Below are positions 195-36,945 of a stretch of DNA of 64,000 bases, piece after piece (within the stretch, counting starts at the first letter, position 1; each line of letters opens with the position of its first letter). Both the position numbers and the translations under genes were made by a program. This DNA comes from Euglena gracilis (lineage: Eukaryota): contig CP154954.1 in assembly GCA_039621445.1 (NCBI GenBank), positions 4,516,714-4,580,713 on the forward strand, written 5' to 3'. The notes beneath the pieces are model-generated. The model saw only the letters and a program-made list of their open reading frames with translations, was not told the DNA's origin and ran no database searches.

Positions 195-2580
195 CCCCTC
201 GGGGAACAGCAGCCCGTCCACCAGCATCAGGATCTGGACGGGCCCCCAGGACTCCAGCGTGTTGCGCCCAGGGCGGCGCTGGTTTCCAGAAAGGGAAGAT
301 CCCCCTGGGGTTGAGACAAGGAAGACCAGGAGCACAAAAAAAATAACGGATAAGATAACAAAGCGCCTTTAAAAACCATGAATTTCTTGGCCAAAATGAC
401 TTAAAAATCCCTTTAAAGCCTTAAGATCTTTAAAAAAAAAGTTCTCGAAATTACAGCCAAAATGAAGCCGTAAAACCTCGGCAAACCAAAAAGTAAGATG
501 GGGGGAAAATGATTTCTGGCATCACTGGAAGATTGTCAAGAATAGGGTCCTCAACTTTTTTGATTTGACCCTGTTCGATCCCGGGAAGGCTCCCTTTGAA
601 CGTCCATGAAAACACACACCTAGAAATGACTAAAAAAAAAACCTCAGAATACGCCTTAAAACATTAAAACTCTTTAAAAGTTTACGCCTTAAGGAGTACC
701 CTGGTTCTGAGTGTCAAAAATTGATTTTGGGACACAGACTCCAAAACATGCATCTGGTGCGCAAAAATATTCGGAGATGACAGACTCAAGTTAATGTTTT
801 GGACAGGGCCAGAAACGTCGACAAAAAGAATGAATGAATCCTTGATTTTGGTCCCCAGCAGGGATTATTCTCAAAGGCTCCTGGAAAAAGGTGCGGCTGG
901 ACACCCACCCTCCCCACTTGGGGATGGGGGTCCAGAGGGAGGGGTCCGGCCGGCTGGGAGCTGGGCCCGGCGGGGACCAAAAAACCCAAATTCAGTTGGG
1001 TTGGGATTTTTAACCAAAAGTTGAAAGGGAAAACCCAAGCCCGACCCAAAAGAGGGTTTTTGGGGGCAATTTACCCCCATTATTTCAAACTATTTTCAGG
1101 CCCAGCTTTGCTTTGCTCTGCTTCGCTGGCTTTGCTTTGCTTTGCTTCGCGCTTTATTTCAGTTGGGGGTGTGGACCCCCCAGGGGGGGGTCTGCAGCCT
1201 GGCTGGGAGGTGCTGGCTGGAAAAAAGTTGCTGTCTGGCTGGACCCCCGGGGGAGGGTCCCCTCCGGCTTCAGCTGGTCCCCCTGGAGACGAAGTTTCAT
1301 TTCAATATTGTCATAATTGTTTGTTGCAATTATTGTTGTTCAAGTCTGGAGACCGCCTTCATCGTGGAGACTGCGGTCCACATTGATTGACTTGCATTAC
1401 ATTTGGAATGTGCCCAGCAGCAGCATGCTCAGCAGCTGCGGGAGCAAGGCTTCGACTTGAACGCAAAGGTTGCGGGTTGGGTCCATGGCGGCACCGATGG
1501 CAGTTCCCCAGGGTGGGCCCTGACCCTGGTGTGCGCGCTGCACAGAATTGAACTTCTCGTGGTCCTTGTCGTCCTTGCTCCCGGCACGGGCCTTCCATCC
1601 CATTCCCCATGAGATCCAGGGTGGGTGCCAGAAGGGAAGAGCCTTCTTGCAAATGCTGGGCCATTTTGGGCCGTTTTTGGGGTCAAAAAACCGAAGTTTC
1701 CAAAAAAAATACTCAGAAATGAAGCAAAATCAAAAGAAAACTTCTGGAGTCCGAAATTGAAGCACTTACGATGACTATTCAATGGTATTTTGATTTCCCC
1801 GCAACGCCTGGCCCGAAATATGGCCGATTTACGGCCGAAACCAGTGGTGACTTAGCCGTTTTCGGGATAGCGGGGCACAGATTTTTTTACAGGAGAGTTG
1901 ACAAAAGTGGACATCCCGAACCCTTGGGGGGGGGGGATTCGGGATGACCACTTTCTTTCTTTCTGGAGATCAGCTTTAGGAGCAAAAAATTGCTCGGTAT
2001 TTTTTGCGATAAATAGGAAAACCACCCAAACTGATCCTCCCCCGCGTGGGGAGGTGTTCAGTGCGAACCCCCTCACCCGGCCTTAAGAAAACCTCTGGAG
2101 AGCTGCCCACTGGAGTGAAATGAAGCAGATCCGTACAACAGTCTGTGGAGAAGCCTGTGGGCGGCATACAGCGCCGGGTACGGCACGTTGTACTTCTTGC
2201 GGGCGTTCATCACGAGGGTCATCAGGTACAGGTTCATGAACCAGGACCAGGCTTGTTTTTGCCAACGTGGGGGGGGTGCTATGAGCAGGTGGGCAGTCAC
2301 CCCCCCCCCGGTCAGTTCTGGCCCTGGTGCCTGCTGACCCAGCCAATTATCCCTTGAAATGGCCATTTTGAGGCCCCGGTGCCTTCGGCAACGGGGCGTG
2401 TGCTATAGCACGACCCACCCAAAACCCGAATAGGTCGAAAATGCCCTTCCCCCCTGCCTGCCTACAGCACCCCCCCCCCCGGGGTGAGCTTCGTCAAAAA
2501 AACAAAAAAAGGAAGCCTGACCAGGAGAGCCCGATCACCAGCACCACGTACCCATACTCGTCTGGGATGACGATGGCCAT
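195..2580 (-). CDS. MAPEG-family microsomal glutathione S-transferase 3-like gene (multi-exon, 3' part probably outside window)
   Basis: Exons 2523-2580, 2161-2242, ~1526-1585 and ~195-263 splice to MAIVIPDEYGYVVLVIGLSWFMNLYLMTLVMNARKKYNVPYPALYA..GSKDDKDHEKFNSVQRAHQNTLESWGPVQILMLVDGLLFP, containing the MAPEG motifs ARKKYxVxYP and FNxxQRAHQNTLE. The exon 2/3 junction and end of exon 4 are unresolved. Confidence 0.92.
264..1525 (-). other. Nonconventional intron 3 of MAPEG gene
   Basis: CAC CAG|GGT-CAGGGC...GCCCTG-GGCGC|AAC ACG; the junction is fixed by the conserved HQNTLE motif and no sliding repeat is present. Confidence 0.85.
2243..2522 (-). other. Nonconventional (non GT-AG) intron 1 of MAPEG gene; body 2248-2519 is a diverged MITE
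   Basis: Minus strand T|GGT-CAGGCTT...AAGCCTG-GTCCT|GG; removal restores L-S-W-F-M. Flanks ACCAGGAC (2240-2247) / ACCAGGAG (2520-2527) are a 7/8 TSD. Confidence 0.85.
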
Positions 2581-6600: not shown

Positions 6601-8802
6601 GTGGGTGCAAGGCGAGGAAACGCTTTCCAAGAGGACAGGTCAACAAGCAAAGAGGGGAAGAGCAATTTCCGGGAGGGTGGGCAGCCCTGCAAAAAAAAAT
6701 GGTGTGGAAATCAGACATCTCTCTAAGGTTTTGCGAACCCCCCGGGGGGGGGGGAGCTGCAGCCAGCCCCGATTTGGGCCCAGCCCAGCCGCAGCCCACC
6801 CCACCCCCGGGGGGGGGGGGGGGGGGTGCTGCTAGTCCTAGCTAGCCAGCCCCTTTTTGGGGGTCCAGCCCAAAATTTTTCGGCGCAAAGCGCCGAATTT
6901 TTTTGAAAAACTGTGTTCAAAAGTGGCCAAAAATGGGTTTGGGGGGTGTTTGGGCCATTTTTGGGGGGTTTCAGATGCATCATTTTTTCAAAACTGTGTT
7001 CTGCAGGACATTTTTGGGCATTTTTCTGATTTCAGTTCAGCTCGCCCCGGTTCGGGTCCAGCCGGGGTCCAGCCCCCCCCAGGGGGGGGGGGCTAGCCAG
7101 CCCAAATTTCTAGCCAGCCCAAATTCCTAGCCAGCCCAAATTTCTAGCCCTAGCCCAGCAACCCCCCGGGGTCCTTAAAGAGATGTATGGTGGAAATGGT
7201 AGAGCGCCAAGAGGGAGACACAACAGCGTCGGACCTTGCACCACCAGTCGCACATTCCAGTTGCCCTCCGGCAGGACGGTTTGCCGGAGGTGGTCCTTCA
7301 GGTCGCCAATGCTCTCGTGCCTGAGGAAGAGCAGCGGATGGATTCCGTGTATTTCTGATGTTTCTGGTGAATGTTTCTCTGAAGGTGAGGGGATCGTTTC
7401 CCAGTGTGGACCGTTTCGTGTGTGTTTCACGAGGACCTCCAAAATGGGAACAATGAGGGAGTCACCTGCCAAAGCGCACCACCACAGGGCCTTCAGATGG
7501 GCGGGTTTCCGAACGATCATGAGCAGGGTCAATGATGTGAGAACTGTGGAATAGGCTTTGTTTTGGCCAAGGTAGAATCCCACAAGGATTCAAGGTGAAG
7601 CCAGTTTTGAAGAGATTAGGCTTTGGTAGGGGGGTGGCAGAGAAGGGGGGGAAGACAAAGAGGAAAGTAGCGACCCAACAACATGGTGGCAGAGAAAAAG
7701 ATAACAGAACAGAATACTGGGGCGCGATATGATCAGGCATTTGCTTAAGGACCCGGGGGGGGGGGGGGTACTGGCTAGCCAATCGGCTAGACACTGGAAA
7801 AAATGAACTAGCTAGAACCCTCCCCCCGGGGGAGGGGGGGGTCCGGGTGTCCCCCGAACTGGAAAAAAAATTTTCCTCCGGCGCACAGCGCCGGAGGAAA
7901 AATGAGGTTTTTAATAGGTTTTTGGCTGATTTTGTTCCAAAAATTCCCCAAAATGGACAAAAACGGGCATTTTTGGCCATTTTGGGGGGTCCCAAAAAAA
8001 TTTTCCGCGCTTCGCGCCGGTCACTGGAAAAAAAATTTCCACTAGCTAGCCCTGCTAGCATACCCCCCCCCTGGGGGGGGTCTGCTAGAAATCCCACTAG
8101 CCAAATTTGGGCTAGTTGCTGTCCACCCCCCCGGGGGGGGGGGGGGGTACTGCAATCCCTTAAGCAAATGCCTGGATATGATTCCATCCCTGTCAAAAAC
8201 TGAGTCAACCTACCAAACTTTGTTTGGCCCAGCAGCTCTCCCCCCCCTGCCAGGGGTCGCTGCTAGCCCAGCCAGCCGGAAAGGCTGGACAGCCAGCCCA
8301 AATTTCCAGCACTCCAGCAATCCCCCTGGGGTCCTTAAAGAGGTGGTTGATCGGGTTCCATCAGCAGCTGACAGAACCTTGCCACCGGCACAAAATAAAA
8401 GGTATTCAAAAATGGTCACAGTCCTCAGTTGCACAGAACAGAACTGGCTACGTATTTATCACCCTGTTTGTCCAAAATGGAAACCAATTCGCATCAAAGA
8501 AATCTAGAAAGACATCACAAACAGGGGTTTTTTTAAGACCGGGAGGGGAGGGGGGGAGGGGGTCGGCACCCACTGCAAAACCTCAATGAGATGTGTGACT
8601 CGTGGAATGACAGATGCCGATGCCGTAACTGTGCTACAACGAGATGTGTTTGCCTTGGCCGCCATCCCCCACCCCGCACACAGCCGCCCTGTCCACGGGG
8701 CAGCGTCACCGCCACGAAGAAGCGAATGGGCAGACCGCTGGGCGCCGCGGAATGCAAGACCGCGGGGCCCTCGATGGAAATGGCCACTTCGCCGTTTTCC
8801 AT
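3690..8802 (-). CDS. Putative ubiquitin-like-domain protein with C-terminal hydrophobic segment (multi-exon)
   Basis: Exons ~7235-7354 and ~6006-6065 join via GT-AG intron 6066-7234 to IHPLLFLRHESIGDLKDHLRQTVLPEGNWNVRLVVQGRQCSDGHTLQQTGITYGGK, a UBL-like pattern. In-frame GT-AG intron 4896-4989. Other candidate exons 8690-8802 (MENGEVAISIEG), 7466-7545, 4990-5120, 4745-4895, 3690-3908. Ends uncertain. Confidence 0.6.
6712..7189. mobile_element. hAT-like MITE, family B
   Basis: TIR CAGACATCTCTCTAAGG / CCTTAAAGAGATGTATG; TSD GTGGAAAT 8/8; second copy inverted at 42021-42502. Confidence 0.9.
7734..8174. mobile_element. hAT-like MITE, family A (CTAG-rich)
   Basis: TIR CAGGCATTTGCTTAAGG / CCTTAAGCAAATGCCTG; TSD GATATGAT 8/8; near-identical to 14223-14669 and 16741-17183. 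Confidence 0.92.
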
Positions 8803-9795: not shown

Positions 9796-12700
9796 TCACG
9801 CGCAGGAGCGCAGGTGGGCGGCGACCTCCCCGCAGCGGGCCTCCACCTTCAGGCAGGCCAGGTCGTCGCCGCGCGTGGGCCCAACGTTGGCGATGACGAT
9901 GGGCACCTTGTTGGCGTGGGCGTGGCGGATGTACCTGGGCCATGGCAGGGGATACGCAGGAGATGGGGCCAGGGCTTTTTTAAGACCTGGGGGGAAGGGA
10001 AGGTCCCCCCACCCACCCAGGGTTCGATATAAGGAGAGGAGGGGGGGGTGGTCCGGACCCCCCCCTGGGGGCCAGGAGGGGGGGGGGTGGGGGGGGACAC
10101 CCCCCCCCACCTAAACAGTGGCGCGGTCAGGGTGACCGATTTTCGGCCCGGCGCTTCGCGCCGGGCCGAAAAATTTTGACCCCCCAAAACGACCAAAAGT
10201 GCCATTTTGGGCACTTTTTGGGCAAAAATTGGCCAAAAATGCAAAAAATTTTCGGCGCAAAGCGCCGGAGGAAAAAATTGGCCCTTTTTGGGGGGGGGGT
10301 CCCGGGTACCCCCCGAGGGTCGGTCCGGACCCCCCTTGCAGGTGGGGGGGGGGGTGGTCCGGACCCCCCCCTGCGGGCCAGGAGGGGGGGTGGGGGTTGG
10401 GGGGGACACCCCCCCACCTAAACCATGTACGCCCTCCTTATATCGAACCCTGCACCCACCCCCTGGGGGGCCGGGGGGTGGGGTCCCGGGGGACCCACTC
10501 AATTTTCCCCGAAAATGGCCAAACAATCGCGAAAAATGCTAAAAATAGCACCTTTTCAAAAAAATTTCACCGCCGAAAAGTATTATCTCCCCCCCCCCCC
10601 CCGGGCTCGGCCGGACACCCACCCTACCCCCCCCCCGTGGTCCAAGACTAAAAAAAAACCCTGGATAGGACAGATGTGAACCAGATTGACTTCAGCCCAC
10701 CAGAGAAGGTGCCAATCAAAAAAATAGTGTGTTATTTAAGAACAAAAGAAGGGGGGCCCCGACACTTTGGGCCGAGGGCATACCGAAAGATGGACGGGAC
10801 CTGCAGCGACGTGCCCAGGGCCAGGAGTAAGTCACTCTGGTCCAGCGGGGGCAGACCGCCCCCACCGGAGAGCCATCCCCCAGCGAGGCCGTTTGGGGCA
10901 AATGCCGGTCCCTTGCCAGCATCGGACAAGCAGCGACGCGCCTTTTCAGTTGGCCACACTACCACCACACGCACCCTGTGGGGGGCGGCAGAGTACCGCG
11001 TATTCTGTTCCAAAACAGACCGGCATTCTATGCATCAGAAACGCCCCACGTCAGAGGGGGAATTGATATCGGAGGCCAGCGGGCAAATTGCGGCAAACTG
11101 CGGTTATCGATTCCCCCCTGCCCTATGCCAGCAAGCTGTGGAGGAGCCAGCCTGGACTGCTCGTAGCCGCACTACAAGAGAAAGGTCATGGATTGGGCAG
11201 GGACGAAGGGACGAAATGGGGTCGGAGTTCTGAGAGAAACACCGGCTCTTGGCGACAAGACTTGGAAAGATTTGCCAGAGAACGTCCTGTCTCTTGTTGT
11301 CAAACGACTCACATTTTGCATGAATTTCAGATTCAGTATGCGAATGATGATATCAAATAAAAAATATTACGCAAAATATAATGTAAAAATATAATAAATA
11401 CAATAAATGCAGAAAATCATTTATAATAACATATGACTATTTCATTTTTATTATTATAATATAATAATATAATTATTATATTATTGATTATAATTATTAT
11501 ATCTAATTACATATTTATAAATATAATGCAATAATTATCATTATAAACAGCCAGCATTGCCACGCCTGCACAACGTGTTTGGGGATGCTCTCCCCGAACA
11601 TCACGACGTGCGGCTTCAGCACGCCGCCACACGCCGTGCAGTCAGGCACGGCGAAGAGCTGGGGGTCAGCCGCGAGGCGCCCGCACTCGAGGCCGGGGCA
11701 GTTTTGCAGCACCCTGTATGTAATGAACCCCTCCGGCGAATGCCTAACACACTGTGTATTGGACGCTCAAACCGAGGAGCTGAACGTCATCAGGTGCATA
11801 TTTATTTTCACTTCTGTAGGTTTATTTTAACATGTGTTCTCTATTCTGGAAATATTCAATGGAAGAATGTCATAATGGGGGGTTGTTCTGGGACCTCAAA
11901 CCAAAGCGCATTGTTTAGATGTGGGCTGGTATGGGCTGGGGCATCGAGGAGGGTCCGGGAGTTTAAGCCTGTCCCCCGCCCAGCCAGATGCGGGGGGAGG
12001 GGGGAAAGGCGCTTGCCCCGTGGGGCAGGGGCCTCGGCCAGACTGCTCTCAGCGTCCCCGTCGGGCCGCATTTGGGCCCAATCCCGCAGCTCATGGCCCA
12101 CCCCAGGCGTCTGCTCCAGGACCCCTGGCTGGGGCTCGGAACACCACTGGCTCGGCCCAAACCTCCCCCGCCACGTCGGGGTGTCGCCCCGGCTGCAAAA
12201 AAAAAAATACCTCCTCCAGCCACCGATGCGGAAATCAAGTGTGTTTTTAGCAAATTTTATTCCCGAAAACCCCAAAAATGCCCAAAGCTGGCGTTTTTGG
12301 CTGGGGTTAAGGGCAGACCCTCACTGCAGCCCCAGAGTGGTGGGGTGGTCCAATACAAATCCCACCGGCCGGTGTTTGGACGGGTTGCAGACCAGCCGCC
12401 CGCCTCCGGGGGCAATCCTCAAGCTAAGGCCTGGCCCACCCACCGTGGGTTGGCAGCGGCCATGCGGTGCTGCAGCTCCGTCCGCGGCGAAACAGCGCCG
12501 CACTGGGGGGGGGGGGGCGAGTACCTCTGGTCAACCCTGGCCCAGGGTCCAGCATCGCCCACCATCGTCGACAACAAAACACTTTGTTGCATGGCTGCAT
12601 TCACGCGCATGGCCATTGTGTGTACACGTTTTCCTATTCCAATAATCACCCCCCCCCGAAAGGACACGTTTTTGAAAGTTTCTTTGGGAGTTTGGCGAAA

Positions 12701-19152: not shown

Positions 19153-19525
19153 CCCCCCCCCCCTTATCTAAGCACTGGAAAACATGGGTAAGCACAAAAT
19201 ATATTTACCAAACTATGGGTAAGAACCAGGGGGTGGTGCTCAGACAAGAGGGAAATTTTCGACTGCGAAAAAAGTCCGACGCTTCGCGCCGAAAAGGAAA
19301 AATTTCCCTTTATTCGGAGGTCCACTGTTGCACTCATAGGAATTTGGATGCAAAAATCAACAAAATCTCATCATAGCAGGCTTCAGAAATTTCTAAAATT
19401 TTCCAAGTTTTCAAGAGATTTCTCTAAAAACACACACAAAATAAGCCTCCCCGAGAAGACCTTTAAAGAGACGGGTAAGAACCAGGAGGTGGTGCTCAGA
19501 CAAGGGTTCTTAGACAGGAGGGGGA
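19153..19525. mobile_element. Dispersed repeat homologous to ~60931-61600 (host of nested MITEs)
   Basis: Shared blocks GTGCTCAGACAAG, GCGCTTCGCGCCGAA, CCACTGTTG, AGGCTTCAGAA, GATAAG/AATAAG..CTCCCC..GAAGA; 32-bp internal direct repeat at 19217 and 19473. Confidence 0.65.
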
Positions 19526-23264: not shown

Positions 23265-23303
<39 letters not shown>

Positions 23304-26290
23304 CGCAGGTTGCCACTTTGATGCCACCTTCCATAAGCAGTCAAGTAACTGCACTTCAAAAAAACCACATGTTTGGTGAAGGCTCCAAATACAAATTATG
23401 TGTGCAGAAATACGACTTATATGACTACACAAAAAAATATGCCACTCCCTGCTTGGAATCTTCCTTTGGGAGTGAACTGCCCCATTTAATTGCGCGGTGC
23501 CCAAACTGGTGTGCGGTTGCCCAAATAAGTATCACACCCATGAGGGTCCGAAACGTCGGTCCAATAATGTGCACACCCCGTGCACTTAACCCCCCCTTGC
23601 CTATCGACCGGGTTCCTACAACCCCCGACCAAGGGGGTGGGCATAGGCACCCCCTTACCTGCAACCCTCGACTGGGGGTGGTCGTTGTCCAGGGGTGGTC
23701 AGTGGGCAAAGGGGGGGGGGTAAATGGGATGGGGTACAGTTGGGAAGGGAAGAAAAAACAGAAACAACTTTGATTTTGGGGAAGTGTGGGAAATACTGCA
23801 ACCAATAAACAATGCCAAACTTTGGGTCGCATGCGTGGGGAAAAATGACAGGGGACGTGCATGGGCTTTGCGTGGCAGTCTCCTGCGGGGAGGATTCCTT
23901 TGCACAGGAGGCCTCTGACTGGGGGCCCCGATTTTCTTTGTTGAACGCAGGCCGCCGCTTCTTTTCTCCAAACCCCATTTGTTTGTCAGCAAACCGGAGG
24001 CAACGCTGCTCAGCCGCCCTCAAACATCTCATGTCGTGCAATGGTTTCATGTGTTGCAACCATCATTTGAGAATACGTTGCTTTCCCTGTGTGCAACATA
24101 TGTGTCACGCAACACACAAATGTCCAACGCGCCAACACACACAGCTGCAAAATGCCACTCATAAACCCGCCCCTCATGATAGAAGCATGGGCAGTGTCAA
24201 AATAAAAGCACCCCCCCCCGCCACCGAAGGCAACGGCCCACTCAAGCACACCCGCATTTTGACAGTAATTCTGAAAGGAAATCAACAAAAATCAGACAGG
24301 TGGTCTTGGAGGCGGAGGTCCGCTAAGAGCGCACCCGCGCTTCAATTGAGGGGGAACATGCAGCACCCTCGCCCCCCTGACCCCCTGACCACAGGCACCA
24401 AACCTTTCGGCAGGGCAGAACGGGAAGGCCTGGTGGGGTGGGGACAAATTTCTTTAACAAATCCGCCTGGCGCCGAAGGCGCCGTGAAAAATTTGGGGGG
24501 GTCAGAAATTGGTGCTCCCGGGAATACGGGGGGTGGGGGGGTCGACCCCCCCTCCACCCACCACCCTGGGCTGGGTGTTTGGCCAATTCCCGTTCTGCGC
24601 TGGCACTCGGAGGGGCCCACACCCAGGCAGGCAGATGGGGATGGCGGGGGGCCCGGGCAGGTACCGCACCCGCCGCAGCACGCCCTCCTCCCAGTCCTCC
24701 ACCACCACCTGCGGCGACGCGGCGAGCACCGCCGGCGCGGCCAGGCCGAGCTCCGTCAGGCGCCGGGCGACGGCCGCCACGTAGTAGCTGGGCCGCAGCA
24801 GCGCCGTTGACCGGGGGGCCCCAGGCAGATACGGCCGACCCCCCAAATCAACTTTTTGGGACCCGGGGGAGGGGGGGGGTCCAGACCCACTCACCCACCC
24901 ACTGGGGGGAGGAGGGAGGAGGGGGGACCACTTTTGGTGGCCGATTTTCGGGTCCAATACGATTCGGTTTGATTCTCAAATAAACAAAGGAACCTAACAA
25001 TAATAACAACAGCTGCTGCAAGCACAACAATAACAACATCAACAACAACAACAAAAATTATAATTATAAAATAATAATACTAATAATAATAAGATAATAA
25101 TTATTCTAATAATAAGAATAATAATCTAATCTAATAATAAAGAATAATATAAAATTTTGCCATTTTGAGGGGAAGCGTGCTTTTTGACTTTTCCAAGATG
25201 GATGTTGAACGGGGGGTGAACGATGGCGGGATGTGTGCATGGAGACACCGCTGGAGTTGCGTTGAGGACCGCCACGTCCACCCCCAGGTCGGTCAGGTAC
25301 TTGAGGCGCTGCTGCAGCGTCGGCAGCTCGATGTTCAGGATGTTGGGTACCTCGTTGAGGGCGTCGCCCACCCGGATTCCATTGGATTGCAGGAGAGTGT
25401 CTGCAGGGCACAAGACGAGGTCGGCCAATGTCAAAAGCAAAGGAAATATCAGTGTCTTTTCCTATTAACTTTAAAAGAAACAAAAAATGCCAAATGGTTG
25501 CCTATTGTCGGGGCAAAGAGGGGGTGTGAAGATGGTTTGGTCGGCGCCAATATGTGCGAATTTTCTGGGGACAGAAAGTCAAAATCAATAAAACCTCGGG
25601 TCGACAGCCAAATCGCAAAGTGGAACGCTTTCTTCCTATTATTGTTGCCGATTCTAAAAATCAATCAAACAAACAAAAACCCCCATCATTTAACGCGCCT
25701 GGAGGGAAATAACGTTCCTTTTCGAGTTATGATCCCAGATTATTCGCCCGCCCAAAAAATAGTCGAGGCATCAAAACTTCCTCAAAAGGCAGGGTGAGGA
25801 CGAGGCCTTGTTTGTAAAATATCCGCCACGCGACACAAACCAAGGAGTCCCAATGCAAGGCCCGGCACCGTTACCCAACGCCCTCCGTTGGTCGGTCCGC
25901 AGCACCTCCAGCAGGCGCCGTACCTCCCCCGCTTCTTTTTCTAACAGCCGCGTGATGGCTAACAGAGCGCGGTGGACCATTCCCATGGTCTCCCTAACCA
26001 CCTCTTCCCCTCCCCCCCCACTTGGAAGTCGTCGCCGAACAGGTTTTCGGGGATCACATTGTCGGCGGGGGGAACACATATTTGTGCGCACACGTTCATT
26101 TCTGTGTGTGCATACGTTGACAGGTGTATCTAAACACGTACTCTGCGCCCATACAGTTGGCGAGTACAGAGGGGGAGGCAAACCTGCTGAATAAAAAAAA
26201 ATATATATATATATATATATAGAGATATATATATATATATATATAGAGATATATATATATATATATATATAATAGATATATATATATATA

Positions 26291-26334
<44 letters not shown>

Positions 26335-26348
26335 TATATATATATATA

Positions 26349-26392
<44 letters not shown>

Positions 26393-29300
26393 TAAAGCCA
26401 GGTTGGTGAGTACAGGCACAGAGGCCAACTTTCGGGCAGGACTGGCAGGATATTAGATGACAGGGAGGGGGGTGAGTTGGGACCCCATTCCTCCCCCCTT
26501 TTATCGGCCATTTCGGTCCATTTTTTGATCGTTTTGGCCAAGCATTATCAGCTTTTGTCCATTTATTGCCGCATCGTCAAAATCAATATCTAGCATCAAT
26601 TTTAATTCATTTTGGGCTGTTTAAAAAACCATTTTAGGGGGCCATTGGCCTTTTTCAACGCCATTTTGACATTTTCACCCATTTTATGGTGGTCATCCCA
26701 ACAGACTACTAAAAAAAAAGCTTCTCTCAAATATGCAAATGCAAAAAAAGAGAAAATTGATCACACAATTATTCCCAAAAGTATTGAACCACCTTTTTCG
26801 TGCTTTGAAGCCCTCCTCCCCCATCAGCGAGTTTAATTTTTTTGCAGCCGCACAAAGGGCGGATGAATGGCAACAAATTTTTGCCATTCAGGGGTGTAAA
26901 AATGGGTTAAGTATGGGATCAAATGGGTTGGAAAAGGGCTCGCCAGCTCAAATTTTGGGCGCAAAATCCATTTTTCATAATTGGCCATTTTGGGAAATCT
27001 CTTCGGTTTCGATTTTTGAGTTCCGGGTTCATTTGAACCCCATGGGGCCAGCACCAGCTGGAAGACCTTTTTGGGGGGCGAGGGGGGGCGCAGCCAGCAG
27101 CATTTTCAGACACAGAGACAGCCCAGAGCTTCCAGCCTCTGGGCTGCCCCACGCCCTGCCCCCTTCAAACCCGAGCGGGGATCCGGAACCTCCCTGGTAA
27201 CAAAAAAGAATTTTCACCACACTTTTCACTGGACAAATTTCGGAGAAAAATTTTGTATGTTTTGGGCCCATTCTTTGAAATAAAAAAAATGCATGGGAAC
27301 GTGACTTTTTGAATAAAATCTTCCAGCACAAAGCGCCAGGAAATCTTTTTGGTATACGAAGTGCAGGCAATGCCAAAAAAAATTTGGAATGCTCACCATG
27401 GAGGCTGGGAACCAGTTTTGGGAAACAAAACCAACCGCCGGTGGATACGGCTCAACGACTTAGAGTGGGGACCTGGAGGGGGGGGTTTGGACCCCTCAGA
27501 CCTGTACAAAACCCTCAAAATAATATAAAAATAATAACCCTGAGGACAAGAGTGGAACATTTTTCAATTTTCAAAAATTCCATAAAAGTTCAGTCAGGGA
27601 CCCTGACTGATATTTCAAAAGCAGCACAAAAGTTAGCCAGCAATCCTTGGGCATATTCTAGCCGAAAAGGGCCAACTACGCACCAACCTGCCCCCCCCCC
27701 CTCCCCAGAGAGTCAGCTGGTACAAGCCTCGTTGTCAACCGAAGAAGGCCGAGTAGTGGACCTTACAACGTGACAAGTCAGCTGTTGCGGGCCCCAGGAG
27801 ACAACTTATCATCATGATCGGTGAGAACCTCACGGGGGGGGGGGGGGGAGGATGCAAATTGGCGAGTACCAGTCCAAAGGCCAACTTCTGGGGGTACGAT
27901 GCGCACGCAGTTATACCTATCATCGCAATTTCCATTTGCATCCCCACGGCTGTTTCGCCCACCCTCAGGCTGGGGGTTCCGGCAGGCCATGGCCATCACC
28001 CCGGCCTCGTCGAGGAGGGAGGCAAGAGGAGCGAGGTCCTCCGCGGGCTGGAAGGCGAGGGGCAGGTGGACCCCCACGGCGGGTGGACTGGGCTGGGACT
28101 GGTTAGGCATAAGTCACGCCTCAGTTGCACGCTTGGGCTTTCCGTTTGTGCCATTTATGACCCAACCGGATGTTTTTTAGGAGGTAATTTTTTTTAGGAA
28201 TCTCACATTTGAATCTGTTTGAATCTCGGAAACTTTCGGGAAATGCCTCCACAAGGGCCGATTGTTGGGGGGTCCCTCCCAGGGGGATGGGTGTTGTGGT
28301 CATGCTTGTGCTTACCGACCGGGGGGGGGGGGGGGGGGCTATAGGGTGCCTGCCCCAAGCAGGCACACCCCCCGGGGGTGGGGAAGGGGTCCGGGGGGAT
28401 ACCCAGAAAATTTTCATTGAAAATGGCCTTTTCCGGGCCCGCGGCACCTTTGCCGAAGGTGCCGGGGTTAGAGGGGGGTGCCTGCTAGGGGCAGGCACCC
28501 CCAAAACCCTACGCCCCCCAGGGGGGGGGGGTCGGATCAGGTGCTATGGGGTGCCTGCCCCTAGCACCCGCCCCCATGGGGTAGGGACCCGACTAAGCAC
28601 AAGCCTGGTTGTGGTGTCCCCCCAGGGTCTTAAAAGGAAGCCTGGTTAATGACCTAATTGACCAAAATCCTCCAAAAGAGGGCCGAAAAGCAGCAACCAG
28701 CGTCGCTTAGTGACTCCCCAAGGCAAGGGGAGTCCGTTTCAAGGGCTGAATATTTTGGGCTGGCTGGAGAGAGAGGGCTGCCTGCTGAACAACCCCACCA
28801 CAGGAGCTGCACAGATGGGCCATTATGAGCAAAAATGTGTCCGAAAGGGATGCGCAGCTCAAATTTTTTTTAGAAAATCGATTTTTTTGTACGATTGGCA
28901 GTTTTGGGGCATTTTTACAACTTCGATTTTTTTTGACACCCTGTCATCTGCCATCTGTCACACAGTCAGAGGACCCGAAAACAAAATATCCGTTACCATC
29001 CAGACGTCCTTCGGGCTGCTCAACAGATGGAAAAACGCTCCCCGGATTGGGCGTCTGGCACTGTGAAAAGACCCTTGGCTGGCTGGATCCCCCTACCCGG
29101 AGAATAGAGCCCCCTCAGGCCGCAGCGCCGACTTGGTGGCAACAGAAAACCACCCCATTTACCAGGAAAGTTTAGGAAAGCTTCAAAACAACTGATTCCT
29201 ACCAGAGAATTTCAGGCCATCGTCCACTGGTCTCTGGGTGCCCCGGTGGTTAGCGCGACGGACAGCCCACCTGCCTGCCCAAGATGCCACAACCCCACAG

Positions 29301-32300
29301 ATGTCAGAGGTCACCACCTTGTCTGTTACCACAAAAACAACATTGTCCGGCGGCACAATGCGGTGCGTTGAGCAGAAACCGACGCCTAACTATCTAGGGT
29401 GTAAAACCAAGTGTCGCTCAGCCCCAAGGGAGTGGCTGAAGCTGCCTCGGCCTGGCCCACGGCGGCCCACGGCACGTCCACGAAATAGGACTCCAGCAGT
29501 TCCCTGGCCAGGGCTCTGTCCTCCCCCAACGGAAACATGTGCTGGTTTGACCACCCCTGACCGGATGCAATGAGGAGCCGGGCATTGACAATGGCGGTGA
29601 AACGTTGAACGGAGCGATGCACAAATGCAAGTACAAGTGCAAGTGCGTTTTCAGAAAAACTAACGAAAACACCAAAAAAATGTTACACCAAAAGAAAACG
29701 TGGTGCAAACGTGCAAAAATGAAATGTTGGTTTGCCCAGGTGCATGCACTTGTTTTTCATTATTGAACCACGCTAGTGTGAAATCGTCCAAAAATGAACA
29801 TATGCAACTTCCAGCTGAACAAGTATGAGTACGAGTACGATTTCAAGCAAGCCCCAACGAAAACGACCCTGTCACAATCCTGAAACCCAAACGCAACGGT
29901 TGGTGGGGGGGGACATGTTACACACCGCACACACAACAATTCTGCGGCTGAACCCGAAGGGTTCGCACAGGCTATCGAATGCTTGGTGATTGTGGAATGC
30001 AAAAAAACAAACCTTCGGTGTTAATACTTCCTGCCTGGATGGCGTCCCAATCTGTCGGGGAGGTGCCCCACCAAAGCTGTAAACAAAAGGTGCATGGGTG
30101 GTCGACTTCCCACCCAGAAGGTGGGGGTGGGTCGACCCCCCCCCGGTCCCAGCACAGCAAGGAAAAATCCCTTCGACACCCAAGGTGCCAAAGGAAATCT
30201 TTGACCGAGAAATTGGCGCACCTGGAAAACACAGAAGCCCTGGATGGGAGGGGTTGACCCCCCAACCAGGCTGTTTTTTACCAACCCCAGGGGGGGGGGG
30301 GTCCGGAGTGCCTGTGAGTGCCTGCCCAGGCAGGCACTACCCCCCCCCCGGATTTCGGCCTGTGCCCAGGCACATTCCTTTGAAAATAGGCCATTTTTGG
30401 CTCCCCAGTGCCTTCGGCGCTGGGGTTGTGCTAGGGCACTTTTGGCCGTGTGCCTTACCCCCCCCCGGGGGTCGGATTTGGAGTGCCTTGGGGTTCCTGC
30501 CCAGGCAGGCACCCCCCCCCCCCGGGGTGGGGTCGGCACCCGACAAAAAAAATAGCCTGCCCGCAACCACACCAACCATAGGCACCAAACATGGGGTTTT
30601 GGAGATTTTTTTGCAGCCCTGACCCCACACACCAAGGCAACGAGGGGGGCGTTGCTGTACCGGGGAGGGGGGGATCTGACTGGAAACAATTGCCGACGGG
30701 AAAAACTCTGTCGGGAAGAATATTGGATAAATCCTTAAAGTGCCGGGAAAGATTCTGGACAGAAAAACCTCGTGAACCCATTTTTCAGGAAAACACAAGA
30801 GAATTAACACCAAATCACAAGGTTTCTGCAAATCCAAACTTCAAAAAATTAATAAAATACTAACCTCCAAATCACAAAACAATGCAAAAATACATCCTTT
30901 CATTTTGAAGGCAGGAGGGGGAAATGCGCACAAAATGCTGGACAGCCCTCGAAAAAAATGCGCAAAAATGCGAAAAAAAAATGCAAAAAAAAATGCGCTG
31001 AGTTGTGACATTCCTAAGGGGAAAAAGGACTTCGAAAAATTTCCAACGATAAGCCCAAAATTAAACCAAAATCACCAAAAAGAGCTGAAACGAAGGCATT
31101 TTGGCCAAAAAAAAAATGCACGAGCAAGGCGTCACTCTCCGTTCACCATAACCAACAATGTCAGCCATGGTGCCCCATGCTTGTGACCAGGGGAGTAGCA
31201 TTCCCCCGCATTTCATCTTGCTCCATCTGCTCAGCTTCTTGGCAGCAAGCTTTTGTCCAAGAATAAAATTTCCATTGAAAAAAGCTTGGATGATCAGCCC
31301 TTGAACTTGAAGCCATTTTGTGAAAAAAATCTGAGGGAAGAATGGATAATTTGATTATTGACGGAAAGAGGGATGGATGACAACATAGAACTGTTCAGAA
31401 GGACGGTGTTCAAGAACACCAATGTCAAGTTTGTTTTTGACATATGGACAATGTGGGTAACATGGACAATGTGGACAAAACGCCTCCAAAAAGTGTAAAA
31501 AAAAGTGTGAAAATGGAAAAAATGCGCAAAAATATGCGCAAAATGCGCAAAAATGCGCATTTTTGAAAAATTGACAAAAATACGCAAAAAAAATGCGCAA
31601 AAATGCGCACCGTATTCCCCCCCCCCTTTTGAAGGATCACCACATTCTGAAAACACAAAACAAGTGACCTGGAACGTAAATACTCCAAAAATCAAATCGG
31701 TGCGAAGCGCCGAAGACGATTTTTGGGCGTTCACTTTGAGGACTTTGGATGTTCTTAAATTTTCCGGGAAAAATCCTTGGATGGATCCTTAAAAATGGCA
31801 GGAGAAACCGTGGAAAAAATTTCGTCCAGAATTTTTCCCACGACAAATTTTCCTGTTCAAATTCCCCCCCAGTATGGGGGAGAAACACAAACACGGACCC
31901 TCGAAAAACGCGACACAAAAAAATCAAAAAGCGCAAGAAACATTTTGCCAAAATTGAAAAGAAAAACGCAAAAAAAATTGCAAAAAAAGCGCGTTTGCGT
32001 TCCGCCCCTCCCCTCTCCCAGGTGGCTTCTGCGCGGCGACCGGGCAGCTCCACAGCCAGCCCTGCGCTGGGTGGCCCGCAGGGCGTCGATGCTACAAGTC
32101 CGAAGCTGCGGGCACGCCAATAGCCGCGGGCTGGGGTTTTCTTAAGCACTCCAAGGGGCCCCCGAGGCCGGCTGGAGAAAAAAAAAGGGAGCCGGCTGGA
32201 CCTCCCCAGGGGGTCGGGGGGGGGGGGGTAATCGGGAACCCCCCAAAAAGGTCAAAATTTCCTTCCGGCGCTTTGCGCCGAAATTTTTTCCATTTTGCAC

Positions 32301-35300
32301 AATTCTTTTGCCAAAAAATGCCCAAAATGGCACTTTTGGTCGTTTCGGAGGGTCAAAGATTCTCGACCCGGCGCCTTGAGCCGGGCCGAAAATCGGTCAC
32401 CCGGACCTTGTTTCGGTTGGGGCGCTGGTTGGCAGCCGTGCCACACCGGCACCTCTCAGCCCCAACCAGGAGTTTTTTTTAAAGACCGGGGGGGGGGGGG
32501 GGGGGCCCCCACCCACCCCTGGGGGGGTCCCGGGGAACCCACCCAAAAATCGCGAAAAATACCAAAAATAGCACTTTTTTCAAAAAATTTCGGTGCCTTC
32601 GGCGCGCGCCGAAAAGTACATCCCACTTCCCCTGGGGTGATCCCCCTGGGGTGGGGGGGGGGGGGCTGGTCCGGCCCCACCAACCCTTCCCCCCCCCCCG
32701 GGGGTCCACGACTAAAAAAAAAAAAACCCCTGGCTTGGAAATTAAGAAAACCGCCGGCTGCGGGGTGGACACCTCCAGCAGGTCAAAGTGCCGCAGCACC
32801 GCCTCGTCCAGCACCATCCCTGTGGGGGGCCCACCAGAATTCGCACCCGACGGCAGTCGTACAAGCTCAGTGGGAGTTGAGGCCAAAGGCAGGGGCGGGG
32901 TGGGGGGGGTTCGTGGGGGGACAGCGCAGACCTCTGTTTAGTGTGTATCAATGATACACATCGATACACAAATTTTTTGGCCGATACACACCGATACACA
33001 AATTTTTTTTGCCAATACACACTAAACAGAGGTCTGGAACAGCGGCATGCCCATGGCAACCGATTTTCAGCCCGGCGTGTAGCAGGAGAATATTGACCTT
33101 TTGCGGGAATATGGCCCGGATTTGGTCTAAATTCGGCCTAACTCTGGTCTGAAACAGGGCCCAAACTCGTCCTATAATTCCATATAGGCAACCCCCACAT
33201 ACATCTGGCCATGACTTCAACCCGGTCCCTAAAAATTCTCCAAATTTCCCGAAAAGATTGGGAACCGGATTCGCATTATATGTCCCTACCGATTGGCCAA
33301 AAATGCGACCCCAAATCAAACAAAAGCCCCCTGAGCACTGGCAGCCGGCTGCTAACATTTTGGAAAGTTGGGCTTCAGGGTTGCTAATATTTTGGGGTTG
33401 CCTGTGTTCGGAGAGTCTCTTCTTTCTGCCGTGTCAGTTAAATTCATTGCAACCAGTCAGGGGAGGGGAATCAGGGGTCAGGGGTCTTTACATTTGGATG
33501 CTGGTGGAGAATCGGCCAAAGAGCTGGGGGGAGTCAGCTGTGATTTTGATTGATTTTGATTTGATTTTGATTGTGATCCTGTGTTTTTGGCCGAGGCCGA
33601 AAGATGTGTACCATTTCTGAAAGTAACGCCAAAAGACACAGGGTCGCCGCCATTCGGGGACAAACAAATGAGCATTTGGAGTGTTGCCTCCCTGGGCAGT
33701 GTTGCGCCATCTGAGCCATGCTGTGCAGTGCACATGAGATTGAGGAGGGGCGGTGACACAGCACACACCCGTCAGGTCGGTAGGCGGTGGGAAGAGCAAG
33801 GCCATCCGAATGCGCCTCGCTTCCTCCTTCCGGTCCAGGGCTGCGTCCCCTTCCGCTGCGAGGGGGTGGCTGTGCTGGTTCGGGTTCAGAAAAGGGCACG
33901 TTTCCCATCGCCAAGCTCCGATGGCCATGGAGTCCCTCTGTCAAAATGTCCTTCCCTGTGCCTCCAATACCAAATCCGAGGCTTAGAGCGAATCTAGCAC
34001 CCCCCTTTGGTGTACCTGGGCACCCTTAAAAAGAAGGGGGGGGTACCTGGGATGAGGCCAGGTTGGCAAGGTCAGGCCCAGATTTTAGGGGGTGTCTTCT
34101 CCCTGAGCAAAAAAACAATACACATTCCCACCAAACTTTTCAAGAAGTGAAACCAAATGTATTTGGGTGGTGGTTTTCAGGCAACCGTTCGCCAAAAAAA
34201 AAGCAAAAGGTACAGGTTGGCCACGTTGGGGGCGCAGAGCAGGCCTCTTACCTCTTACGTGCCTTCAATGGGGTGCCAGGCACACCTCCCAGGGGTGGGG
34301 GGGGTCGGCTTTCGTGCTTGCCAAACCAAATTTCCCTAGAAAATGGTAATTTTCAAGCCCCACGGGGGGTGTGACATAGCACCACCCACCCAAACAGGGT
34401 TTTTTAAGACTGGGGGGAGGGGGGAGGGGGTCGGCACCCACCCACCCACCCACCCACCTCCCCCCCCCAGGGGAGGGGGTCCCGGGGGACCCACCCACCT
34501 TTGCCCGAAAATGGCCAAAAATGCTAAAAATAGAATTTTTTAAATTTTTCGGTGCCTTTGGCGCCAAAAAAAGATATACCCACCAGCCCCTACCCCCACC
34601 CCCCCCAGGGGGGAGGGGGGTCCAAGGGACCCACCCGCCCTCTCCCCCTCCCCTCCGGGGGAGGGGGTCCAAGACTAAAAAAAAACCCTGCACCCAAAAC
34701 ATCACCCTGGGGGTCGGAAGTGACCTACCCCCCTGCCTTGGGGGGGGGTGAGCTTCCTTAAAAAGAAGCCCGGCACGGAGGAACGAAGTGCACAAGTTGC
34801 AGGTCACAGGCACATGGAACCTTGAAGCCCAGCAACCCCAGCGTGGCAGTGGCCATCCCCCACTGCGCACGTTGTCAGGGTCAGGGCGTTTGTAAACGAC
34901 CCCCCCCCCGGGGGGGCTCAGAGGCTGGAAAGTTTGGGCTGGCTGGAAAAAGGCTGCTGGCTGACTCCCCCCCCCCCGGGGGTCCCGAGCTGGAGCTGGG
35001 CCCGACTTGGGGTCGAACCAGGAACCAAAAAATCAAAAATTTAAAAACTGCCAACTGTGCAAAAAAAAAATCGATTTTTTACCCAAATTTTTCCTGGCCA
35101 GCCCAAATCTGACTCATTTTCCCCCATTTTTGACCCATTTTTGCCCATTTTTGTACCTCCAAATGCGAAAAATTGAAAAAGTTTCCGTCCAGCAGTCCTT
35201 CAGGCGGCTGGAAATAAATCAATCTCATTGAGGGGGGGGAAGGGGGTCCAGGCTGGAAAAAGGCTGCTGGCTGGCAGGCCCCCCCGGTGGGTGGGGTCAA

Positions 35301-36945
35301 AATTTCTCAAGCTACACCCTGGTCCACGGCCCGTGAGACGGAGGACAGCCGCCAGGGGCAGCAGCAGCAGCAGCAGCAGCACGGACAGGACACTGACCGG
35401 CTGGCAGCCACAGTGCACTGGTGGGGGGGTTGGTGCCGAACGATGGCAACGTTCGGTGGCCCTGTGGCCCCGTTTGACCCTGGGATGCGGTGGCCATCGG
35501 TATAGACTCGGTGAGATGTGGTGGCAAAACCAACTGATTTGGGCCTATAAAAAAAACAGCCGGAAAATGACCAAAGTCACCCGAAATGATTTTTTGTTAC
35601 GGTTTTGTTATCGATGGGCACTTTCGCGGGTGGTTTTCTCCCAATCAGTCATTTAAGGTTGCGGACTGGCCAAACCTCCGAAAAGGTGTCCTGCGGCCGG
35701 GGGGGGGGATACAAATAGGGGGGGTTGTTGGACATGGGGGGGTCTGGTCCAACCACCAAAGGGGAGGGCCCTGCAGGTTGAAAGAGAGACATGGCCGCAA
35801 GGCACCGTGGGACGCCAGGCACCCCACAGACTGGTGGTGGCAGCAGCTGCGGCAGGATGTGGCGGCGCCTGTGCTCCACGGGCCGTTGGCGCAGCTGGTC
35901 CCTGCTGTGCCACCGCCTGGTCCCTGCCGTGCCCCCCCCCCCCCCGAATGGCAAACTGGTTCCAGAAACGTCCGCATCACAAGCAACGAAGAACCTGGGG
36001 CGTGCGCTTTGATAATAAATCCGTAAATAAATAAATAAAAATAAAAGAGGACAAATAAAAAAATGCGGGAAAAATGCAATGTATGCAAAATAAAAAGTTT
36101 GCGGTAGCAGCGGTAGCACACGCCAAAGCCCCAGCCGGCTCGCCCCCCAACCGCCGGCCATGCAACAGCTCGCGGCAGCTGCGTGTGAGGAAGGGTGGCC
36201 GGCTGGTGCCGGGCCCAGAACGACGCGGATGGCGGTCGGGGCAAGGTCGGGCCAGCTGAGACACTTTGGGGATATTGGGGACAGGCAGTGGCGGAGGGCG
36301 TGGAAGGCGAGACTGGAGCGGGTTGAGGGTTTCACGCACACAGGTTCCTGATATTGGTAAAGAAGGAAGAAGGAGAAGGACGACCCTGAAGGATGTTGAC
36401 AAATGCGCGTGCAGATGTGCGTACAGTTTGGAACGCTGGGGAGGAAATCTCCCCCAAAACCATCAAACTATCACAAATCAACGGCTTGTTTCGACAGCTT
36501 GAAACCCAAGTCCAAAAAAATCCCCGATCCAGGACCTAAAGGCCCAAACCCATCAAAAACACCTAGACAGAGTAAACGAACAAACAAAAAATCTTTATGG
36601 GAAGATTCTGCACCTTTTTATTCATGGAAAGGTGATCAAAACAGCTAATTTTTAAAGCACACCCAGAGGAAGAGGTGTCCATCTTGTCCCCCCCCCCCCA
36701 CTTGGCCCCAGCAAAGTAGGCCCCAACAGGCTGGGCGAAGCGGAGGTTTGATTTGCAGGCCCCACTGCAAATCCCCAAGCAATGGGCCAACATTGTTGAG
36801 CATGGGCAGCAGACAGCCCCATCGCCAGGAACGTGAGCACTAGCACCGGGATGAGCCACCTCCGGGGCACGGCCCCTAGCGGCCCACCACCGGCCCCGCG
36901 GATACGGTCGGGGTGTCCGGGCCACAACCCGGGGCTGGGAGACAT
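21437..36945 (-). CDS. mTERF-repeat protein with Euglena-type plastid-targeting presequence (many exons, model incomplete)
   Basis: mTERF-like motifs [26 protein letters not shown] (25249-25400), [21 protein letters not shown] (~24660-24800), [24 protein letters not shown] (22247-22405); last exon 21437-21595; GT-AG introns 25401-25874 and 35401-35805 are in frame. Linking the 5' exons (36945 to 34876) to the mTERF exons passes through unresolved exons at ~27975-33870. Confidence 0.7.
23150..23302. repeat. Compound (ATT/ATC/CAG)n microsatellite
   Basis: Direct reading. Confidence 0.95.
26201..26386. repeat. (TA)n microsatellite
   Basis: Direct reading. Confidence 0.97.
28301..28607. mobile_element. 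hAT-like MITE, family E
   Basis: Ends CATGCTTGTGCTTA / TAAGCACAAGCCTG; TSD GTTGTGGT 8/8; sister copy 39566-39855. Confidence 0.9.
30267..30559. mobile_element. hAT-like MITE (E-related)
   Basis: CAGGCTGTTTTT / AAAAATAGCCTG; TSD CCCCCAAC / CCCGCAAC 7/8. Confidence 0.82.
32467..32732. mobile_element. Family-C MITE (no recognisable TSD)
   Basis: Colinear with 34395-34690 and 61125-61388; flanks do not match. Confidence 0.7.
32927..33036. mobile_element. 110-bp micro-MITE
   Basis: Perfect 22-bp TIR CAGACCTCTGTTTAGTGTGTAT; TSD GGACAGCG / GAACAGCG 7/8; interior of GATACACA repeats. Confidence 0.9.
34395..34690. mobile_element. hAT-like MITE, family C
   Basis: CAGGGTTTTTT / AAAAAACCCTG; TSD CACCCAAA 8/8. 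Confidence 0.9.
34877..35324 (-). other. Nonconventional intron in mTERF gene with MITE-like body 34882-35321
   Basis: CGT G|GAC-CAGGG...CCCTG-ACCCT|GA CAA; splicing gives [18 protein letters not shown]; interior carries the GGCTGGAAAAAGG..GCTGGCTG motifs seen in the free element 58166-58575. Confidence 0.7.

Follow-up and report, generated by a model that had tools for sequence, protein, structure and literature searches.

Nonconventional introns in a 64,000-nucleotide window of Euglena gracilis as probable insertions of short inverted-repeat transposons with one 8-bp target-site duplication

Introduction

Euglenid nonconventional introns (Milanowski et al., 2014, 2016; splicing code, Nomura et al., 2025) lack GT-AG borders. 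Positions +4 to +6 pair with positions -8 to -6, mostly as CAG with CTG, leaving spacers of 3 and 5 nt at the two ends. A purine opens the downstream exon, conventional and nonconventional introns are mixed in one gene, and direct repeats make many of the junctions slidable. The same features were found in a 64,000-nucleotide stretch of the Euglena gracilis genome (GenBank assembly GCA_039621445.1, contig CP154954.1, positions 4,516,714 to 4,580,713 of the forward strand; hereafter the window). The introns of the window are members of this class and show no difference in kind. The window adds free copies of the same families, present as transposable elements of the miniature inverted-repeat type (MITEs) with exact 8-bp target-site duplications (TSDs), and a sum of the two spacers that equals the TSD length. 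The element families are shared: they are present both as free copies with 8-bp TSDs and, in coding exons, as introns.

It has been asked since the 1990s how these introns originated and why their borders are asymmetric. A MITE origin was proposed in 2014, at a time when, as that paper states, euglenids had no known transposons (PMC3935182). A 2016 paper from this group described a newly acquired intron, present within a single strain, with a direct repeat of 8 nt that was taken as the mark of break repair (PMC4770533). A 2024 review mentions TSD-like repeats and a likely MITE origin, and cites literature in which excised introns are reported as circular RNA and removal as non-spliceosomal (PMC11282704). 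According to a genome-scale and knock-in study of 2025, nonconventional introns make up 71.8% in E. agilis, direct repeats make 84% of introns slidable, and the code is N3-CDG...CH'G-N5-6|R with the spacers fixed by knock-ins at 3 and 5-6 nt; its Discussion still calls the origin of the introns unclear (PMC12501133). A literature search, with supplements outside its reach, returned no statement that 3 + 5 equals the TSD length, no free homologous copies and no hAT MITEs in Euglena. Already in print, then, are the MITE origin, the TSD-like repeats, the 8-nt repeat at a new intron and the 3/5 spacer code as set by experiment. The window provides a well-documented local case of this published hypothesis and adds two links to it, namely that 3 + 5 is the length of the TSD and that the consensus of the target is also that of the borders. 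An initial analysis of the letters of the window (the sequence-only reading) had mentioned a transposon origin as suggested in general terms; the 2014, 2016 and 2024 papers bore this out, and the idea is less new than had been thought.

In ciliates, internal eliminated sequences are transposon-derived insertions that are tolerated in coding sequence, and the element is removed precisely together with one copy of the target duplication. That removal takes place at the DNA level in the somatic nucleus by a domesticated transposase, whereas euglenid removal is reported at the RNA level. The introners of Micromonas, Aureococcus, dinoflagellates and other lineages are DNA transposons with terminal inverted repeats (TIRs) and TSDs that become introns on insertion and give rise to many homologous introns (PMC11282704). 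One TSD copy lies inside the intron and removal is therefore scarless, as is proposed here. As that review describes them, introners are spliceosomal, supply or co-opt GT/AG sites and have TSDs of 3-5 nt, whereas the introns of the window show no spliceosomal signals, have cuts measured from the TIR helix and have a TSD of 8 nt.

The reported hallmarks of hAT elements are an 8-bp TSD and TIRs of 10-25 bp (PMC3942097). MITEs of the hAT superfamily share with the window elements the 8-bp TSD, imperfect TIRs of 12-18 bp starting with CA(G), the absence of coding sequence, the presence of several multi-copy families, and a palindromic target with T and A at positions 2 and 7. The window elements differ in that no autonomous partner or transposase was seen, and in a pyrimidine and a purine at target positions 3 and 6, which lie outside the pattern nTnnnnAn quoted for the hAT element Hermes (PMC10368747).

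Results and Discussion

Free Elements and Their Target-Site Duplications

The window was scanned for inverted repeats with at least 11 of 14 bases complementary and 60-3000 nt apart, simple repeats being excluded. This gave 4559 pairs. Flanks matching at 7/8 or 8/8 were found at 12 of the 325 pairs with CA...TG ends versus 4 of the 4234 pairs with the other 15 end types, and those four all lay within G, C or A runs. Three further perfect cases, each with one CAT end, came from separate repeat comparisons. The final set comprised 17 non-exonic MITEs with TSDs of 8/8 in 7, 7/8 in 7 and 6/8 in 3 (Table 1). The sequence-only reading had counted 14 such elements with CAG/CAT..CTG/ATG ends (7, 6 and 1 in the same classes), and the observation was confirmed.

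Duplication lengths (L) from 3 to 13 were scored over the 17 copies. At L = 8, 123 of 136 positions matched, compared with 29-43% at every other length. One TSD mismatch at most was found in 14 of 17 copies at L = 8 and in none at any other length from 6 to 13. The match peaks at this length alone and the duplication is therefore exactly 8 bp. All 34 element ends start with CA, the third base being G in 27 and T in 7, and the arms are complementary at 11-14 of 14 positions. Ends of the CAG or TAG type are frequent among hAT elements. The published intron-end motif is carried by 12 of the 17 free copies, and the required purine follows in 12 of these 12 in one orientation and in 8 of 12 in the other.

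Comparison of the window with itself showed several repeat families of 300-500 bp with ends reading CAGGC... or CATGC... to ...GCCTG. In the alignment of a three-member family (7734-8174, 14223-14669 and 16741-17183) the CAGGC...GCCTG ends mark exactly where identity starts and stops, and outside them the copies are unrelated. The MITEs are short non-coding inverted-repeat transposons of 110-700 bp found between genes, in introns and in coding exons; 8 of the 17 free copies lie inside introns of the sirtuin or mTERF gene. One element (10018-10452) is nested inside another (9970-10663), and the relative order of insertion follows from the 8-bp duplication that each carries. Their own 8-bp TSDs, the sharp family borders and the nesting point to cut-and-paste DNA transposition.

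Long C-runs adjoining G-runs (7-18 nt) lie tens of bases inside each end in nearly every MITE family, for example at 7757-7770, 14245-14260 and 28328-28345. These runs were the source of most false matches in the repeat scans. At least 120 metagenome stretches matched the family-A end pattern, with one match each. A partner end with at most 3 mismatches was present in 2 of the 120 listed, neither of them with matching flanks, and the matches were rejected as chance rather than taken as further MITE copies.

Intron Junctions and the Terminal Helix

Intron junctions were taken as every donor and acceptor pair that reproduces one of two transcript-derived proteins. These were P0001 (eukprot EG_transcript_17989, 288 aa, a sirtuin, Pfam PF02146) and P0002 (eukprot EG_transcript_8533, 490 aa, an mTERF protein, Pfam PF02536); the prefix EG_transcript is taken here to denote the Euglena gracilis transcriptome. 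Two introns of a gene resembling MAPEG/MGST3 were set by reading frame. In the sirtuin and mTERF genes 24 introns were enumerated, making 26 with the two claimed MAPEG introns. Six are conventional, with a GT-AG or GC-AG option and no end helix, and 20 are nonconventional. GT/GC-AG borders are impossible at any mRNA-compatible junction in 19 of these 20, and MTERF-I8 also permits GC-AG.

The nonconventional sirtuin introns are missing from P0001, which matches the sirtuin exons of the window with 0 mismatches in each junction window, bar one that holds three substitutions. P0002 is 80-100% identical per exon and is therefore an allele or paralogue match, not necessarily the product of the 21440-36945 locus. 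The MAPEG/MGST3-like gene has a start codon, and its frames are open across both intron removals (2243-2522 and 264-1525). A Pfam MAPEG match was obtained on the exon-2 frame only among the three exon frames and is below threshold (E 0.053). No transcript-derived protein was found for this gene with exon 2 as query. The sequence-only reading had proposed five introns on the ground that their removal restores sensible protein. Two of these (12099-12436 and 15428-15971) are indeed absent from P0001 and one (34877-35324) from P0002, while for 264-1525 and 2243-2522 the case consists of the frame, the HQNTLE motif and the weak Pfam match. The same reading had placed the borders of all five introns 3 nt before and 5 nt after the helix. 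This is correct on the minus strand, on which all the genes lie; in plus-strand coordinates the offsets are 5 before and 3 after.

The best helix over the slide positions of each intron was determined for every offset pair from 0 to 9, with a threshold of at least 5 bp. At offsets (3,5) such a helix was present in 14 of 20 nonconventional introns, in 0 of 6 conventional introns and in 60 of 380 mis-paired ends (5' end of one intron with 3' end of another). The offset grid had its maximum at (3,5), and the slide neighbours along the line of sum 8 were also raised. In 14, arguably 16, of the 20 nonconventional introns the two spacers add up to 8. In SIR-I5 (12099-12436) the fold is closed by the terminal helix; the stability of the whole intron is no better than that of shuffles (z -0.36) and only the terminal helix is informative.

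Surviving Duplications and Related Intron Bodies

The last 5 exon and first 3 intron nt were compared with the last 5 intron and first 3 exon nt. Among the 14 introns that have a helix at (3,5), the identities out of 8 were 3, 8, 2, 5, 4, 2, 3, 4, 5, 1, 2, 2, 7 and 1. Mis-paired controls had a mean of 2.76/8, with one 7/8 and no 8/8 among 182 comparisons. The duplication survives in three introns, SIR-I5 (8/8), MAPEG-Ia (2243-2522, 7/8) and MTERF-I7 (32126-32759, 7/8), where the 8-mers directly abut the element ends. No slide position of these three young introns allows GT-AG borders. The TSD of MTERF-I7 was read from the junction option 32126-32759, which is outside the set of 14. The inner helix of this intron is 11 bp long; with two mismatches, the outer pairs extend to sum 8. 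An excess of 8-nt identity over a control, genome-wide, had been named in the sequence-only reading as a check on its proposal; within the window the identity was 7-8/8 in the three young introns and at background in the others. Of the five introns that it took as an element plus one TSD, a clear duplication is carried by 12099-12436 (8/8) and 2243-2522 (7/8), the values for 264-1525, 15428-15971 and 34877-35324 being 1/8, 3/8 and 4/8. MTERF-I7 was not among the five.

Six intron bodies (2243-2522, 264-1525, 12099-12436, 15428-15971, 34877-35324 and 11669-12039) were compared with the window by BLAST. MAPEG-Ia is colinear with stretches of two free copies, 39656-39716 in 39566-39855 (79% over 62 nt, E 2e-7) and 30376-30439 in 30267-30559. 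An internal 93 nt of MAPEG-Ic (264-1525) is 81% identical to the free element 58166-58575 (E 1e-17). SIR-I5 is a diverged member of the 7734-8174 / 14223-14669 / 16741-17183 family, with likeness of the ends in the alignment and two colinear BLAST blocks (E 2e-7 and 8e-7). The body of MTERF-I4 (34877-35324) has a truncated relative at 26792-27157, with 65% identity over 376 nt (E 2e-15); this copy retains one end only, so that no TSD is readable. The bodies of SIR-I3 (15428-15971) and SIR-I6 (11669-12039) gave a 33-nt match only and no match in the window, respectively. MTERF-I7 holds nested copies related to 61125-61388 and 10018-10452, with similarity to 61125-61395, 34461-34685 and 10125-10314.

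Target-Site and Border Consensus

The 17 TSDs were symmetrised to 34 half-sites. G was present at position 1 in 18/34, T at position 2 in 17/34 and a pyrimidine at position 3 in 27/34, each with p about 1e-3 or less against the composition of the window. The target consensus of the MITEs is approximately G-T-Y-N-N-R-A-C and is roughly palindromic. Of the 34 half-sites, 17 have a base of the hAT pattern, either T at position 2 or A at 7, versus 24% expected (p 1e-3).

Under the 3/5 split both junctions fall between TSD positions 5 and 6, and the downstream exon starts with positions 6-8. In 55 introns examined in 2016 a purine was present at intron +1 in 51/55, and downstream exon bases 1-3 were a purine in 55/55, A in 43/55 and C in 30/55, reported without explanation (PMC4770533). 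Among the 17 free MITE targets of the window, 16 have a purine at position 6, 9 have A at position 7 and 9 have C at position 8. In 15 window introns taken at the 3/5 position a purine was present at intron +1 and exon +1 in 15/15 and C at exon +3 in 8/15. The published purine-A-C at the start of downstream exons is reproduced by the MITE target consensus under the 3/5 split. A pyrimidine precedes the junctions in 13/15 and 10/15 introns versus 9/17 free targets. This preference is stronger in introns, and splicing or selection must therefore add to target preference.

Origin of the Nonconventional Introns

The best explanation of these results, and a likely one, is that nonconventional introns are CAG...CTG MITEs plus one 8-bp TSD, removed scarlessly by 3/5 cutting, with a hAT transposase and an exon consensus that is largely the footprint of the target. 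A MITE would insert in a coding exon and duplicate 8 bp of a roughly palindromic target. The non-spliceosomal removal route is described as reading the helix at the intron ends, with one cut 3 nt upstream of the 5' arm and the other 5 nt (in rare cases 6) downstream of the 3' arm (PMC12501133). Removal is reported to follow spliceosomal splicing and to yield circles. Since 3 + 5 equals the 8-bp duplication, a fresh CAG...CTG insertion in an exon would leave with exactly one TSD copy and the mRNA would be restored letter for letter. With scarless removal, insertions would be neutral from the start and nonconventional introns would arise in one step. Later the 3 and 5 nt on the intron side and the body would drift, further elements would nest and the duplication would fade with age. 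The pyrimidine|purine on the exon side of both junctions and the purine-A-C downstream would be largely a footprint of target preference. The transposase would belong to the hAT superfamily, as TSD length, CA(G) ends and target consensus suggest. The hAT-like label of the sequence-only reading agrees with these three features; a transposase was not seen. Its central proposal, a CAG...CTG element plus one TSD split 3 + 5, is supported by the shared families, the three surviving TSDs, the spacer sum, the published knock-in spacers and the target consensus.

Several observations weigh against this explanation. No transposase was found in the window, where the 10 longest open reading frames (ORFs) outside the mapped exons, hand-picked from ORFs of at least 130 aa, had no Pfam match. 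The published code tolerates a 6-nt 3' spacer (PMC12501133), which would not be scarless for a fresh insertion. Between 4 and 6 of the 20 nonconventional introns are off a sum of 8. Among them SIR-I6 has a sum of 7, and MTERF-I1, I11 and I12 (about 36238-36800, 25384-25895 and 24808-25253, minus strand) have no helix at sum 8. MTERF-I2 shows an apparent 5/3 split at the sole junction that reproduces the protein of the relative, a 3/5 cut would change one residue, and the split is either an allele difference or a real exception. The second end pair of MTERF-I7 is a G-A mismatch, a combination outside those tested in print. Two of the six tested intron bodies have no clear relative in the window. 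The junctions were taken from two transcript-derived proteins, one of them only 80-100% identical per exon here, and the MAPEG gene is without transcript support. A clear duplication is present in only 3 of 20 nonconventional introns and the other 17 are at background (mean about 2.8/8). For these 17 the origin from a MITE plus TSD is extrapolated; the absence of a duplication from most introns would be expected if they are old.

The causal order may instead be that of a filter, which is unlikely. The helix-measuring route would be older than the MITEs and independent of them, only transposons with CAG...CTG ends and an 8-bp TSD would be harmless in exons and so accumulate there, and 3 + 5 = 8 would reflect selection on the transposon or its survival. 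Related noncanonical introns with paired ends are reported in diplonemids (PMC12621601) and suggest an old route. The CAT ends of 5 of the 17 free copies are off the published motif and no window intron has such ends, and the introns off a sum of 8 also fit a filter. A filter still grants that the introns are MITEs plus a TSD, differs only in which side adapted and is indistinguishable from the explanation above within the window; the match of exon-side and target consensus is expected under both. There is also a modest chance that the superfamily is not hAT but Merlin, P or another with 8-bp duplications, in which case the link to the introns would still stand. The CAT triplet read at 7 of the 34 ends is also that of P-element ends. 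E. gracilis is known to carry two Merlin families that make 8-bp TSDs, and these share with the window elements the host, the DNA-transposon nature and the duplication length (PMC8101967). In that source the Merlin TIRs start with GG in all families described, against 0 of 34 ends with GG and 34 of 34 with CA here, and T at target position 2 and A at position 7 fit the hAT pattern.

The reverse direction, in which excised circular intron RNA or intron DNA re-inserts and the free copies descend from introns, is very improbable. Circular excised introns are reported (literature cited in PMC11282704) and intron and free copies are homologous, but homology alone gives no direction. The mobile unit ends exactly at CA...TG, without the 3 + 5 spacer bases that an excised intron would bring. 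Each copy is flanked by a separate 8-bp duplication of a palindromic target, as expected of staggered cutting by a DNA transposase, and an element nested in an element with intact TSDs points to transposition. Scarcely credible for the window is double-strand-break repair with filler DNA as the source of the direct repeats at young introns, proposed in 2016 for a gapC intron, where the 8-nt repeat at a newly gained intron was read in this way (PMC4770533). Against it stand the fixed repeat length of 8 nt over 17 free copies of several families, the multi-copy families with inverted-repeat ends that make up the inserted DNA, and the target consensus; filler predicts none of these.

A wider form of the explanation by MITE insertion is attractive, with the doubts slightly outweighing the case for it. 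The whole euglenid nonconventional intron code would be the shadow of one transposon superfamily. The 3/5 asymmetry would exist because the sum is the 8-bp TSD, the Y|R would be one target dinucleotide seen twice, the purine-A-C would be the preference of the transposase, and the removal machinery would be an RNA-level eraser, conceivably derived from the family itself. Every CAG...CTG MITE that inserts into an exon would then act as an intron as soon as it is transcribed, and intron gain would be one-step, ongoing and testable. If the MITE hypothesis holds, a host RNA-processing rule and the cutting geometry of a transposase would fit exactly, which would help to explain a genome with 70% nonconventional introns. 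The window offers named families both free and as introns, three young introns with duplications, and a target consensus that predicts border statistics. The MITE hypothesis becomes quantitative in that it predicts that identity peaks at the 8-nt register, that the spacers add up to the TSD length, that a transposase with matching ends exists and that a knock-in is removed without a scar.

Other Features of the Window

The positions of genes, nonconventional introns and free elements are listed in Table 1.

Table 1. Genes, nonconventional introns and free MITE copies in the window.
Feature	Position	Strand	Description
MAPEG/MGST3-like gene, 5' part	1-2580	-	Cut by window start; claimed introns 2243-2522 and 264-1525, and a further putative one between about 1610 and 2165
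Sirtuin gene	9799-17976	-	10 exons, 9 introns (5 GT/GC-AG, 4 nonconventional); mapped with P0001
mTERF gene	21440-36945	-	16 exons, 15 introns (1 GT-AG, 14 nonconventional, one of the 14 readable as GC-AG); mapped with P0002
MAPEG-Ia	2243-2522	-	280 nt = element 2248-2519 + 8 nt; TSD CTCCTGGT / GTCCTGGT, 7/8; 8 slide positions
MAPEG-Ic	264-1525	-	1262 nt; 3/5 fit; one possible junction; TSD gone (1/8)
SIR-I3	15428-15971	-	544 nt; helix CAACGCTGCCGC / GCGGCAGCGGTG at 3/5 (or 4/4); TSD 3/8
SIR-I5	12099-12436	-	338 nt inside coding exon = element 12104-12433 + 8 nt; TSD GGGTGGGC on both sides, 8/8; 0 mismatches to P0001 at junction; 11 slide positions
SIR-I6	11669-12039	-	371 nt; helix at 3/4
SIR-I8	10847-11157	-	311 nt; 3/5 fit with CAG...CTG; TSD 2/8
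MTERF-I2	35903-36125	-	223 nt; 12-bp helix; spacer sum 8
MTERF-I4	34877-35324	-	448 nt = element 34882-35321 + 8 nt; 3/5 fit; TSD 4/8
MTERF-I7	32126-32759	-	634 nt; TSD CCCGCAGC / CCCGCGGC, 7/8, directly beside element ends of ...GGTTTTCTTAAG type, now decayed; six slide positions
MTERF-I8	29504-32067	-	2564 nt; exact 3/5 fit CAGGGCT / AGCCCTG; also readable as GC-AG; holds free element 30267-30559
Further mTERF nonconventional introns with 3/5 helix of at least 5 bp	21560-22246, 22418-23920, 23943-24658, 25979-27994, 28078-29463, 33858-34842, 35403-35813	-	
MITE F1	6712-7189		478 bp; TSD GTGGAAAT, 8/8; inverted relative 42021-42502 (7/8)
MITE F2	7734-8174		441 bp; TSD GATATGAT, 8/8
F2-family MITE	14223-14669		TSD 7/8; inside sirtuin GT-AG intron 4
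F2-family MITE	16741-17183		TSD GTGGTGGC, 8/8; inside sirtuin intron 1
MITE F3	9970-10663		694 bp; TSD 6/8; in last sirtuin GT-AG intron
MITE F4	10018-10452		TSD CACCCACC, 8/8; nested inside F3
MITE F7	28301-28607		307 bp; TSD GTTGTGGT, 8/8; inside nonconventional intron MTERF-I9
F7 relative	39566-39855		TSD GAGGGGAC, 8/8
MITE F8	30267-30559		293 bp; TSD 7/8; inside MTERF-I8
MITE F9	32927-33036		110 bp; TSD 7/8; inside GT-AG intron MTERF-I6
MITE F10	34395-34690		296 bp; TSD CACCCAAA, 8/8; inside MTERF-I5; relative 61125-61388 (7/8)
Weaker candidate MITEs	38615-38987, 44616-44950		TSD 6/8 each
MITE F15	46606-47033		428 bp; CAT ends; TSD 7/8
MITE F16	58166-58575		410 bp; TSD 7/8; end type recurs, decayed, at intron 32126-32759

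At intron 28078-29463 of the mTERF gene one 8-mer is found in three places: where the exon ends, a little way into the intron and where the following exon starts. It has five slide positions and misfits a simple single insertion. The sole three differences between the sirtuin exons and P0001 (15972-16028 and 15332-15427, minus strand) lie within 15 residues of the nonconventional intron 15428-15971. Two micro-exons were found on the minus strand, one of 15 nt in the sirtuin gene (11157-11171) and one of 21 nt in the mTERF gene (23921-23941). Both are required to reproduce the transcript-derived protein, and both are bordered on each side by one conventional or nonconventional intron.

The window is nuclear DNA of Euglena type, and its G+C content is about 52%. 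A tandem array at 53612-55398 consists of 11.1 copies of a 163-bp unit with 94% matches, and related single units lie at 53174-53610 and 1679-1835. Rfam gave no match anywhere in the window, the array included. Long microsatellites are present as (AT)97 at 26201-26394, an imperfect (CA)239 at 42856-43302, (CGTG)45 at 48673-48852 and (ACAT)106 at 57522-57945.

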